Shown piece by piece: positions 38,718 through 42,546 of a DNA stretch of 64,000 nt (positions are counted from its first letter, which is position 1; each line of letters begins with the position of its first letter). This DNA comes from Escherichia coli 042 (GTDB lineage: Bacteria > Pseudomonadota > Gammaproteobacteria > Enterobacterales > Enterobacteriaceae): the NCBI RefSeq assembly GCF_000027125.1, contig NC_017626.1; one strand, 5' to 3'. Under the pieces are notes generated by a model that ran no database searches, had not been told where the DNA came from, and saw only the letters and a list, made by a program, of their open reading frames with translations. A program made the translations under genes and the position numbers.

Positions 38718-39611
38718 ATGAATGGAAAATTGCAAAGTTCGGATGTAAAAAACGAAACTCCGTACAATATTCCCTTATTGATTAACGAAAATGTGATCTC
38801 CAGCGGAATTTCTCTGATCTCGCTCTGGCATACCTACGCCGACGAGCATTACCGGGTGATCTGGCCGCGGGACAAGAAGAAACCGCTTATCGCCAACTCA
38901 TGGGTTGCGGTGTATACCGTACAAGGATGTGGGAAAATTCTTTTAAAGAATGGCGAACAAATAACTCTGCATGGCAACTGTATTATATTTTTAAAGCCAA
39001 TGGATATTCACTCTTATCACTGTGAAGGTTTAGTCTGGGAACAGTACTGGATGGAATTTACCCCCACCAGTATGATGGATATTCCCGTCGGTCAGCAAAG
39101 CGTTATTTATAATGGCGAAATTTATAATCAGGAACTCACCGAAGTTGCTGAGTTAATTACTTCACCAGAAGAAATAAAAAATAATCTGGCAGTCGCTTTT
39201 CTGACGAAAATTATTTATCAGTGGATTTGTCTTATGTACGCAGACGGTAAAAAAGATCCACAACGGCGGCAAATTGAAAAACTAATTGCCACTTTACATG
39301 CCAGTCTGCAACAACGCTGGAGCGTAGCTGATATGGCTGCCACGATCCCCTGTAGCGAAGCCTGGTTGCGTCGTCTGTTTTTACGCTATACCGGCAAGAC
39401 GCCGAAAGAATATTACCTCGATGCACGTCTGGATCTGGCGCTATCGCTATTAAAGCAACAAGGGAACTCGGTTGGCGAAGTCGCTGATACGCTCAACTTC
39501 TTCGACTCCTTTCATTTCAGCAAAGCCTTTAAACATAAATTTGGTTATGCGCCGTCAGCTGTGCTGAAGAATACGGACCAGCACCCAACGGATGCCAGTC
39601 CACACAATTAA
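38718..39611 (+). CDS. yidL: AraC-family transcriptional regulator
   Basis: C-terminal AraC HTH; ATG at 38718 follows GGAGGGA. Confidence 0.85.
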
Positions 39612-40930
39612 CGTAACTCTGGCCAGTACGCTTTGTTGGCCTCCAGCAACTCATCCAGAATAGCTTTGGCGACCGAGGCGCTCGGTACCGTTTTCGACAA
39701 CGTAATCGCCTGCCACAGGTGCTGATATGAACGCTGTTCCCAGGCGTCCACGACCAGTTTTTCCACCGCCACTTGCTGACTCATTAACCCTTTCTGAAAC
39801 TGCGGGATATCGCCGACCACCAGTGGTTCTGGTCCGTTGTGCCCGACCAGACACGGGATCTCGACCATCGCTTCATCATCAAAGTTATGGATTGCCCCGT
39901 TGTTAGGCACAATCAGCAACATCCGCTCCTGAGTGTTGAAGGCAATTGCCGCCGCCAGATCGACGATATATGACGCATGTTCGTCAATTTCCAGCTTGCC
40001 CGCCGCTGAATTTTCTGCCGCCGTAATGGCGCGGCAAGCATCGAAAACCTGTTTCTCGCGATGTTCCATCACCTCATTCGCGCGGGTATGTTCAGGGTTG
40101 GAATGCTGAACGACATAATCCGGGAAGAGATAATATTTCAGATAGGTGTTTGGTAATGTATCCGGGTCCAGTGCCTGGACATCCCGCGCTTTTGCATAGG
40201 TGTCGTTCCAGCTCGCTTCAGTATGTGTATCTTGCTGCGGTGGAACATAACCGTGCTTAGAGACATATTGCCGCAGCTGGGGCATCAGGTCGTTGCCCTG
40301 CAAATCTTCAATTGATGTCCACCAGCCAAAGTGGTTCAGGCCGTAGTAGCGCACGCGCATCTGTTTGCGATCTTGCAGCCCAACAATTTGCGCCATCCGG
40401 CTTTCAATACCGATTGGCATGTCACAGATGTTGAGGATTTTCGCATTCGGGCGCAGACGACGCGTGGCTTCTGCGACAATGGCTGCCGGGTTGGAGTAGT
40501 TGAGCATCCAGGCATTTGGTGAATATTTTTCCATATAATCCACCAGTTCCAGGACGCCGCCAATGGAACGCATGCCGTACGCTATTCCGCCGGGTCCGCA
40601 AGTTTCCTGTCCAACAACGCCGTGGCGCAGCGGGATTTTTTCATCCAGTTCGCGCATCGGGTATTTGCCGACGCGGATGTACGCCATGACAAAATCAACG
40701 TCGCTGAACGCCACTTCAGGATCGGTGGTGTAACTAAACGCAATGTCCGGCGCTTTCTCTTTAAGGATGACTTTACAGGCTTCAGCAATGACTTCCTGCC
40801 GCGCGCCATCGTTATCATAAAATTTCAGTGCACGAAGCGGGAAACGGTCCTGATTCGCCAGGAGCATCAACACGATGCCTGGCGTAAAGGTGCTTCCACC
40901 GCCTGCGACAACCACTGAGAATTTGGTCAT
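39608..40930 (-). CDS. glvG: 6-phospho-alpha-glucosidase (GH4), apparently intact
   Basis: 440-aa uninterrupted ORF with an N-terminal NAD-binding GGGS motif. Confidence 0.85.
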
Positions 40931-42546
40931 TATACTGCCTCCGTAATGGCAACATTTTCTGCTGATTGATGAGAATTAATTAAGCTATCGAGCTGTTCAC
41001 GCAGCTGGGATACATGCAGACCAATGATCACCTGAATGGCATCGCCACTACGGAAGACGCCGTGCGCTCCCAGCTTTTTAAAGACTTCGTCATCCAGCGT
41101 TTGTGACATGTCATGCAGTGCAATACGTAAACGCGTCGCGCAATTGTTAATGCTGGAGATATTGCCGACCCCGCCCAGGGCTTGCAGGATACCGGCAGCC
41201 TGATCCAGCTCTTTTTTTGGCTCTGCCGCGGTGGTTTGGCCTCGCGAGGCTTTGTATTCGGCTTTTGAGTAGAGTTTCACTTCCGCATCTTCACGTCCCG
41301 GTGTGCACATGTTGAATTGCAGAATCAGGGTGCGGAAAACCACGAAGTACAGCAGCGTAAAGCACAACCCAATGGCGATTTGGGTCAGCATCATATCCGC
41401 GTGGTTGCTGAACATCGGGATCCAGTTTTGCGGTAAAACCTGGTCAATCAAACCACCGCCCATGTTGCCCACCACACCAAAGAGGTACATCACGGTCGAC
41501 ATTGAGGCCGCCAGCACGGCGTGTACCGCAAACAGCAACGGTGAAATGAACAGGAAGGTAAATTCCAGCGGTTCGGTAATTCCCACCAGCATGGCGGTTA
41601 AGGTTGCAGGGATCAGCAAGCCCGCCACTTTTACCCGATTTTCCGGTGCGGCAGTGATGTACATCGCTAAAGAAATGCCCACGGCACCAAAGATTTTTGA
41701 GTTACCGTGCAGGGCAAAACCGCCTTCCGGGAACAACGATTTCAGCGGCTCGGCGCTCAAACTGAACTCTTGCAGATGCTGCGCCCAGTACATCTGAATG
41801 CCGCCTTCAACAGCTGCCGGACCAAAGATAAACGGTCCGTAGATGAAGTGGTGTAAACCGGTTGGGATCAGAATACGTTCGAGGAAGGTGTAAACCCACA
41901 CCCCAAGGGCACCCGCCGAACGCAGGAACGCTTGCAGAGATTCAATTCCCATTTGTACTTTTGGCCAGCCGAGCAAAGTCAGCCAGGCGCAGGGGATCAT
42001 CACCAGGAAGGCGATAATCACCACATAAGACGTCCCCTGGAAAATGCCGAGAAACACCGGCAGTTTTTTATCGAACAGGCGGTTATGCAGCGCCGTCACA
42101 ATGCCGGAAATGATAATCGCGCCGATAATGCTGGTATCGAGAGTTTTAATCCCCGCCATCATTGTCAGCCCGCTACCTGCCACCGCGTCCTGAGTGAAAT
42201 CGACGCCGAAGTAGCTTCCCCAGGTCATTCCCATCGCGTTGATGAAATAGTTCCAGGTCAGGAAACTCACCATCACCGCCAGACAAGCACGCCCCTGCGC
42301 TTGCTTCGCAAGGCCAATGGGTAAACCGACAGCAAAAATCAGCGGCATATTACGGAATACCGTCCAACCGCCCTCTTCAATAATGTGTACGATTTGCGCG
42401 AACAAACTGTTTGGATCGGTCAGTGATTCCCCGACAAACATCGGGTTTTGCAGCAAGATGGCAAGACCCACCACAATCCCGGCGAAGGGAAACAGCAGCA
42501 CTGGCGTGAACATCGCGCCGCCAAAGCGTTGAATTTGACTGAGCAT
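40930..42546 (-). CDS. glvC: PTS alpha-glucoside-type EIICB component, fused IIC-IIB
   Basis: 538 aa from the ATG at 42546 (AGGA upstream); the track ORF runs another 87 codons upstream, probably spurious; C-terminal IIB-like region with a CATRLR-type motif. Confidence 0.8.

Follow-up and report, generated by a model that had tools for sequence, protein, structure and literature searches.

An undamaged glvBC-glvG operon in Escherichia coli 042 and a lineage-specific tyrosine in its predicted 6-phospho-α-glucosidase

Two described systems for the use of α-glucosides offer the closest comparison for the glv genes of Escherichia coli. The agl system of Klebsiella pneumoniae, made up of the EIICB transporter AglA and the phospho-α-glucosidase AglB (PDB 6DUX/6DVV), has the same design as the locus described here, in which an EIICB chain without a IIA domain is paired with an NAD+/Mn2+ enzyme of glycoside hydrolase family GH4. 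The second is the glv system of Bacillus subtilis, with the hydrolase GlvA (PDB 1U8X) and the transporter GlvC/MalP, an EIICB protein which in an E. coli host works with EIIA-Glc. One study (PMC5309279), citing Pikis 2006, describes E. coli K-12 carrying Klebsiella aglA and aglB as growing on methyl-α-glucoside, isomaltose and sucrose isomers, states that α-glucoside growth of K-12 with either these genes or B. subtilis glvA and glvC requires the host crr gene, and refers to the K-12 glv homologues themselves as cryptic or truncated.

We have analysed the corresponding locus of E. coli 042 within a stretch of 64,000 nucleotides (contig NC_017626.1), here called the window (Table 1), and consider that it very probably represents the undamaged, ancestral form of the glv operon, orthologous to the Klebsiella agl and B. 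subtilis glvA/glvC systems. The K-12 glvC-glvB-glvG genes occupy the same locus, between yidL and yidP, with ~98.4% nucleotide identity, but are cryptic and pseudogenised. The initial annotation had stated that in K-12 glvG is interrupted and the transporter gene is split in two, and alignment with the locus of a K-12-type O16:H48 genome shows this to be correct. In that genome glvG lacks 508 nucleotides and is annotated as 'frameshifted', and the transporter gene carries a TAG at codon 369 and is annotated with an 'internal stop', which accounts for its two pieces, GlvC (368 aa) and GlvB (161 aa, profile NF007255). The 508-nt segment is flanked by an 8-bp direct repeat, AGTGGTTC, and the deletion junction is identical in all eight deletion-type genomes read. 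Neither lesion is present in E. coli 042.

Table 1. Features of the glv locus of E. coli 042, numbered by position in the window.
Feature	Coordinates	Strand	Description	Basis
glvG	39608..40930	minus	full-length GH4 6-phospho-α-glucosidase, 440 aa	ORF listing, Pfam, structure matches, RefSeq
508-nt glvG segment	39830..40337	minus	deleted in K-12, present and in frame here	alignment with the K-12-type genome
glvG codon 84	40679..40681	minus	TAC (Tyr); the other E. coli alleles read all have CAC (His)	
Shine-Dalgarno GGAGG of glvG	40938..40942	minus	within the glvBC 3' end	read from sequence
glvBC	40930..42546	minus	single-chain PTS EIIC-EIIB, 538 aa, alpha-glucoside family, without IIA domain	
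Cys469 codon of GlvBC	41140..41142	minus	predicted phospho-accepting IIB cysteine	NCATRLR motif
glvBC codon 369	41440..41442	minus	CAG (Gln) here, TAG in K-12	
Upstream extension of PTS ORF	42547..42807	minus	87 codons, in the glvBC-yidP intergenic region; spurious	
Shine-Dalgarno AAGAGGA of glvBC	42554..42560	minus	7 nt upstream of ATG 42546	read from sequence
CRP-like site CATGAaagcgaTCACG	42660..42675	minus	putative; conserved across genera	
Near-palindrome	42692..42725		34 nt; candidate YidP (GntR/HutC-type) operator	
yidP	42842..43558	plus	divergent GntR family (UTRA domain) regulator, probable repressor	RefSeq annotation transferred from an annotated genome; NCBIfam

The glvG gene is, as had been proposed, a continuous frame of 440 codons, and RefSeq already names it '6-phospho-alpha-glucosidase'. 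Its product contains both GH4 domains, Glyco_hydro_4 (PF02056, 221.7 bits, residues 6-184) and Glyco_hydro_4C (PF11975, 191.4 bits, residues 195-415), which gives full-length coverage. The solved Klebsiella enzyme (6DUX) is 89% identical over 439 residues (E=1e-273), and the alignment with B. subtilis GlvA (1U8X), proposed earlier as a check, runs end to end (E=1e-224). In GH4 and LDH-like folds an N-terminal GxGS motif binds NAD+ and an acidic residue binds the ribose; GlvG has G10-G11-G12-S13 and D39 at these positions. These residues, together with R93, E109, N147, C169, D170, H200, Y263 and R283, are all kept, and occupy invariant or nearly invariant columns among 77 diverse GH4 representatives. 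C169 and D170 form part of a CDMP motif and, with H200 and Y263, make up the metal and catalytic site; matched by sequence alignment to GlvA numbering, these are C171 and H202, which we take to be the Mn2+ ligands, and D172 and Y265, presumably catalytic. GlvG is thus by family a GH4 6-phospho-α-glucosidase with its catalytic and cofactor residues kept, for which activity is predicted. Its Shine-Dalgarno sequence lies inside glvBC, and the glvBC stop codon overlaps the glvG start as TAATG, which indicates that translation of the two genes is coupled.

The transporter is likewise a single IICB polypeptide of 538 residues, as the initial annotation had held, beginning at an internal ATG of a maximal open reading frame of 625 codons (40930..42807, minus strand). 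GlvBC scores 958.5 bits against TIGR02005, the alpha-glucoside-specific IIBC profile with a curated cut-off of 607.3 bits, with residues 2-523 matching profile positions 1-524. In Pfam and NCBIfam profile searches, PF02378 and PF00367 fall on the one chain and no IIA family matches it. The GITE sugar-binding motif is kept (GITEP, at residue 322), and the NCATRLR motif at residue 468 aligns with CITRLR of the IIB domain of PtsG in 8QSR. RefSeq already lists the protein as 'PTS sugar transporter subunit IIB'.

Could the longer frame, uninterrupted from its ATG at 42807, be the true product, a PTS protein with an N-terminal extension of 87 residues? We regard this as most improbable, and the earlier dismissal of the extension as spurious was justified. 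The profile match begins at residue 2 of the 538-residue form, which is also the form that RefSeq adopts, and ATG 42546 is preceded by a strong Shine-Dalgarno sequence, of which AGGAT is retained in both Enterobacter and Citrobacter. The additional 87 residues have no Pfam match. Their codons fall in the promoter region between the divergent genes, where those two genera show no conservation of a coding sequence and have intergenic lengths of 221 and 273 nt, respectively, compared with 295 nt here; between genera the region is poorly conserved except for short regulatory-looking blocks.

These blocks are consistent with a regulated promoter between glvBC and yidP. YidP gives NCBIfam GntR-family matches, and its orthologues in Citrobacter and Enterobacter (76-77% identity) have the same divergent position beside the IICB and GH4 genes, the whole GntR-IICB-GH4 arrangement being conserved beside yidE in both genera. 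The candidate operator is a near-palindrome with 17-nt arms, 82% complementary and without spacer, and its half-site AGAGATCTA is repeated at 42830-42838; three genera share a conserved TAGA(T/C)CTCT adjoining the regulator gene. The consensus for CRP is TGTGA-N6-TCACA, and at the putative CRP site columns 167-171 and 178-181 of the cross-genus alignment are invariant. No Rfam family was found in 39000-43600 at E<=1. Terminator-like matches were fewer than expected at random and lay inside open reading frames, and were disregarded; antisense frames within glvBC and glvG (for example 41303-41797, plus strand) are attributed to chance, since no family matches them and the strand opposite is strongly conserved as coding sequence.

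What pathway would these genes provide? The initial annotation supposed a working route for α-glucoside uptake and hydrolysis, and such a route fits the intact residues, the 89% identity with the Klebsiella enzyme, the profile score, the translational coupling and the purifying selection described below. For the substrates, the need for Crr and the control by YidP and CRP, we infer the following scheme. GlvBC, as a membrane EIIC-EIIB protein, would take up α-glucosides such as isomaltose, methyl-α-glucoside and sucrose isomers, and would phosphorylate their glucosyl moiety at O-6, the phosphate presumably passing from PEP through EI, HPr and EIIA-Glc (Crr) to Cys469 of the IIB domain. GlvG, with NAD+ and Mn2+, would then cleave the 6-phospho-α-glucoside by an oxidation/elimination mechanism, yielding glucose-6-phosphate and the aglycone. 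Transcription of this translationally coupled pair would probably start at a promoter that depends on CRP and is repressed by the divergent YidP.

The historical names of the K-12 genes suggest a different specificity, since an older annotation calls glvC an 'arbutin specific PTS permease' (PMC2617782), and on that basis the locus would encode a PTS for arbutin and other β-glucosides with a 6-phospho-β-glucosidase. This is very unlikely. GlvBC passes the alpha-glucoside IIBC profile but reaches only 40-47 bits against the beta-glucoside profiles, whose cut-offs are 560-894; GlvG, so close to a 6-phospho-α-glucosidase, matches 6-phospho-β-glucosidases only at E=1e-61, and its motif is CDMP, unlike the other group, which has CN[VI]P together with Gln at position 84. 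Arbutin, which had been suggested as a test substrate, belongs to the β-glucosides and would not be an expected substrate of an α-glucoside IICB and a 6-phospho-α-glucosidase. A search of the accessible literature found no experiments on expression or phenotype for E. coli with an intact glv locus.

The initial annotation was right about the structure of the operon, with its intact glvG, fused glvBC and spurious extension, but the state it described is not unusual. Of 5,426 complete E. coli genomes, 1,649 (~30%) contain the 508-nt segment; glvG carries the deletion in ~48%, and the whole locus is absent from ~21%. The exact K-12 stop allele, searched as a 61-mer, occurs in 348 genomes only, and a fused transporter gene is the norm among genomes that carry the locus. 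The exact proteins are already present in public collections, and the intact alleles of O157:H7, T-HYM1 and DL21 (WP_000160107.1, WP_000952134.1) are identical in architecture to that of E. coli 042; the transporter of T-HYM1 (WP_000952134.1) has the same amino acid sequence, and its GlvG differs at a single residue, through the H84Y substitution confined to the 042 lineage. The intact glvBC-glvG operon is thus correctly described but ordinary, being widespread among wild strains and annotated before now in public databases, and is the ancestral allele of the E. coli glv operon.

The intact alleles are under strong purifying selection: among five of them glvG has a dN/dS of 0.03-0.15 and glvBC one of 0-0.07, and between the window and T-HYM1 the glvBC genes differ by 16 synonymous and no non-synonymous changes. 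On the other hand, E. coli is losing the pathway, through loss of the locus, the glvG deletion and the K-12 stop, which suggests that selection on the pathway is weak. About half of E. coli have an apparently constrained transporter without the hydrolase, and this, on a rather unlikely reading, would imply a role for GlvBC that is independent of GlvG.

The one feature that sets the 042 allele apart is Tyr84. The histidine of the MAHIRVGKY sequence at this position is nearly invariant in the clade: 118 of the 120 close homologue clusters keep it, and tyrosine occurs there in none of the 197 homologues inspected (none of the 120 clusters, and 0/77 among the diverse GH4 representatives). Every CDMP and CN[VI]P representative has His or Gln at position 84. 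The substitution is absent from the 5,426 complete genomes, and the exact Y84 protein was found in 85 contigs, all restricted to the lineage of the window. The open glvG frame is therefore no proof of an active enzyme. This histidine is, however, a feature of the clade rather than an established catalytic residue, so that its replacement lowers confidence in activity and not in homology; for the equivalent residue of GlvA, His86, a search of the accessible literature found no description of a role.

It is accordingly possible, although we think it the less probable outcome, that the operon of E. coli 042 is open in frame but non-functional, either because H84Y cripples GlvG or because the genes are transcriptionally silent, as in several cryptic glucoside systems of E. 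coli. The rarity of the substitution points this way, as does its location two residues before the invariant Arg86-x-Gly88, and a promoter scan of the region found no sigma-70 consensus promoter where 2.9 were expected. Against this, residue 84 is not known to act in catalysis or to bind metal, and Gln, Thr, Ala and Ser are all accepted there within GH4. In a profile whose entropy weighting flattens differences, the log2 odds for H84Y (-2.4) are no worse than those of the natural variants E357K (-2.3) and P217H of O157 (-5.1). Elsewhere the locus of this lineage shows no damage, and independent assemblies agree in its sequence; the conservation of the CRP-like and operator-like blocks points to an operon that is regulated, not silent. 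Also rather doubtful is the proposal that Tyr84 is functionally meaningful, whether as a cryptic inactivation or through a shift in the handling of cofactor or substrate. A non-functional operon would be a further instance of decay in a pathway that E. coli is losing, and if Tyr84 is inactivating it would be the fourth independent route of glv loss, after locus loss, the 508-nt deletion and the K-12 stop.

The findings show how poorly K-12 serves as a reference for the glv locus. On the strength of the intact operon, E. coli 042 and ~30% of the species are predicted to be possible users of α-glucosides that K-12 cannot use, isomaltose and isomaltulose among them, with some bearing on strain-level metabolic models and on gut and food ecology, sucrose isomers being used as sweeteners. 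The locus also illustrates how a pathway can decay step by step in a single species. Beyond correct annotation its importance is small.

Finally, the E. coli operon differs in several respects from the systems that it most resembles. The Klebsiella enzyme retains the histidine where GlvG of E. coli 042 has Tyr84, and the Klebsiella agl genes work when expressed in K-12, whereas the activity of the E. coli glv operon is predicted from its sequence. All active-site residues of B. subtilis GlvA are conserved along its alignment with GlvG, but the regulators differ in type, that of the B. subtilis glv operon being the RpiR-type GlvR and that beside the E. coli genes a GntR/UTRA protein. The gene order is also reversed: glvA comes first in Bacillus, and the transporter gene first in E. 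coli 042.

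The segment of the window that carries glvG and glvBC is the E. coli yid-glv-ibp region. Six-frame ORF listing places glvG exactly where the initial annotation had put it, as an uninterrupted gene of the length proposed, and the single PTS polypeptide likewise stands when translation is taken from an internal ATG of the maximal ORF. Alignment with the K-12-type O16:H48 genome (L001), in which glvG is annotated as a frameshifted 815-nt remnant and the PTS gene has an internal stop, bears out the accompanying claim that in K-12 glvG is interrupted and the PTS component is split into glvC and glvB. 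K-12 lacks 508 nt of glvG, with a shift of frame, and codon 369 of glvBC, CAG in the window, is TAG in K-12, giving GlvC (368 residues) and, after re-initiation, GlvB (161 residues, profile NF007255). The original observation is confirmed, and the interpretation placed on it is largely right.

Features of the glv region (window positions; residue numbers for GlvG)
Feature	Position	Description
yidK, yidE, ibpB/ibpA		neighbours of the glv genes, with yidL and yidP
yidL		AraC type; convergent with glvG; 4-nt overlap with glvG stop
glvG	39608-40930 (-)	440-aa ORF
Segment missing from K-12	39830-40337	508 nt
GlvG codon 84	40679-40681	CAC to TAC, changed base at 40681; MAHIRVGKY motif
Maximal PTS ORF	40930-42807	625 aa; adjoins glvG ORF
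glvBC	40930-42546 (-)	538 aa
CRP-like CATGA-N6-TCAC(G/A)	42660-42675	conserved in Enterobacter and Citrobacter
Near-palindrome, 34 nt	42692-42725	candidate YidP operator
Repeated half-site AGAGATCTA	42830-42838	half-site of the near-palindrome
TAGA(T/C)CTCT block		adjoins regulator gene; conserved in three genera
yidP	42842-43558 (+)	GntR type; divergent
Retained GlvG residues	10-13 (GGGS loop), D39, R93, E109, N147, C169-D170 (CDMP motif), H200, Y263, R283	

The 87 codons by which the PTS ORF extends upstream had been suspected of being spurious, and this judgement holds: a Shine-Dalgarno sequence, AAGAGGA, lies 7 nt 5' of the ATG at 42546, the match to the alpha-glucoside IIBC family profile (TIGR02005) begins at residue 2 of the 538-aa form, RefSeq starts glvBC at the same ATG, and the extension, which falls within the divergent glvBC-yidP promoter region, has no domain match. 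At the other end of the gene, the glvBC stop overlaps the glvG start (TAATG), with GGAGG 7 nt upstream, an arrangement that indicates translational coupling of the two genes.

Both GH4 domains are found in GlvG, which is 89% identical to a Klebsiella pneumoniae 6-phospho-alpha-glucosidase of solved structure (6DUX, 439 residues) and can be aligned over its whole length with B. subtilis GlvA (1U8X). All positions that are invariant or nearly invariant in 77 diverse GH4 representatives are kept; these we take, from the GlvA and BglT structures, to provide NAD+ binding, the Mn2+ ligands and the catalytic base. GlvA, an enzyme with an elimination mechanism, requires a 6-phospho-hexopyranoside, NAD+ and Mn2+ (PMC10628242). 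The transporter combines IIC and IIB in a single chain, with no IIA, and scores 958.5 bits against TIGR02005 (cut-off 607.3); its scores fall far short of every profile for beta-glucoside, sucrose or trehalose transporters. The GITE motif is kept, at residue 322, as is Cys469, the cysteine of the IIB domain, within NCATRLR.

Is the GlvG of the window an active enzyme? It departs from the intact form usual in E. coli by a single residue, tyrosine for histidine at position 84. The exact 61-mer around this change occurs in none of 5,426 complete E. coli genomes, and RefSeq complete genomes sample the window's lineage poorly: the highest identity among them is 99.0% across the 16 kb of 20000-36000 and 99.4% across the glv region (39400-43000). 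The substitution is genuine and characterises a lineage: the exact Y84 protein can be found in public collections (P0002, accessions including CBG36863.1, 85 contigs), and the window's sequence is matched without difference over 7.3 kb by a draft assembly (L004) and almost as closely by an NCTC genome (L005). Of the 120 closest homologue clusters (74-92% identity, Enterobacterales to Clostridium and Leptotrichia), 118 have His at position 84 and none has Tyr; the 77 more distant GH4 representatives show Gln, His, Thr, Ala or Ser there, never Tyr, and all CDMP and CN[VI]P motifs, which are of phospho-glycosidase type, are accompanied by His or Gln at this position. Tyr is thus absent here from about 200 homologues inspected, and the invariant Arg86-x-Gly88 begins two residues on. 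These are grounds for concern; on the other side, position 84 is no known catalytic residue, and profile-odds do not separate H84Y from other natural E. coli variants. That the pathway is impaired or silent in the window's lineage we consider rather unlikely. Given this mixed evidence, the window GlvG is probably, although not certainly, active.

Among five intact alleles (the window, T-HYM1, O157:H7, DL21 and TKEC21-17), pairwise comparison gives a dN/dS of 0.03-0.15 for glvG and of 0-0.07 for glvBC, and the transporter genes of the window and T-HYM1 differ by 16 synonymous and no non-synonymous changes, a signature of purifying selection on both intact genes. Within glvBC the synonymous differences from T-HYM1 cluster in the 5' half, a distribution suggestive of a recombination mosaic.

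At least 80% of 39400-43000 is present in 4,266 of the 5,426 complete genomes. The 508-nt segment occurs in 1,649, implying full-length glvG in about 30%; by subtraction, some 2,600 (48%) have K-12's deletion, and in about 1,150 (21%) glvBC, glvG and yidP are all absent, in agreement with the placing of glvC among strain-variable genes (PMC2617782). In the locus-less state, represented by strain HS13-1 (L003), a slightly shortened yidL lies directly beside yidE. The deletion is flanked by an 8-bp direct repeat, AGTGGTTC, and the eight deletion-type genomes read (L001, L008 and L014-L019) all share one and the same junction, so it arose once and spread. The stop is far rarer, the exact K-12 61-mer over it being found in 348 genomes. 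An intact 538-aa transporter gene persists in seven of the eight deletion-type genomes, and in hydrolase-less genomes the polymorphic codons of this gene are 26 synonymous and 4 non-synonymous. Single strains also show decay of neighbouring regulators and transporters: DL21 (L007) and LR-21-1 (L019) have a frameshifted yidP, yidL is truncated in W2-5 (L015) and in TKEC21-17 (L009), with an IS200/IS605 element adjacent in the latter, and the NCTC genome (L005, LR134246.1), whose glv allele is that of the window, has a frameshift in yidK.

The glv state of the window is not unusual. It is the common ancestral allele, already annotated (in RefSeq the intact products are called "6-phospho-alpha-glucosidase" and "PTS sugar transporter subunit IIB") and deposited, with at least 1,000 contigs carrying the exact transporter and 85 the exact GlvG. 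What goes beyond the textbook is only the H84Y change of this lineage and the stepwise decay seen across the population, including an intact transporter gene in genomes without the hydrolase.

The glvBC-yidP intergenic region has no consensus sigma-70 promoter, and an Rfam scan of 39000-43600 (E<=1) found no RNA family. Three blocks are conserved in an alignment of promoter regions from E. coli, Enterobacter and Citrobacter, namely TAGA(T/C)CTCT, the CRP-like site and the Shine-Dalgarno sequence, and YidP orthologues (76-77% identity) in the latter two genera are likewise divergent, beside IICB-GH4 genes. From these blocks and this synteny it is reasonable to infer that YidP is a putative repressor, and CRP a putative activator, of the glv genes. 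E. coli and Enterobacter have one regulator gene at the locus, whereas Citrobacter has two; on a C. rodentium-type contig (L010, 1641-3123) tandem GntR/UTRA genes, with products 76% and 57% identical to YidP, lie between yidE and the IICB gene.

Most likely, phosphate would pass from PEP through EI, HPr and EIIA-Glc (Crr) to Cys469 of GlvBC, which would import alpha-glucosides and phosphorylate them at O-6; GlvG would then cleave the phospho-disaccharide to glucose-6-phosphate and an aglycone, fructose or glucose. Arbutin had been put forward in the initial annotation as an alpha-glucoside for growth tests; it is, however, a beta-glucoside and no expected substrate, and K-12 glvC bears its "arbutin" label for historical reasons. 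Both the Crr step and the substrates are carried over from Klebsiella and Bacillus homologues expressed and tested in K-12 (PMC5309279, citing Pikis 2006). By analogy with these systems, the expected substrates would be methyl-alpha-glucoside, isomaltose and the sucrose isomers, with panose added by way of the Bacillus pair.
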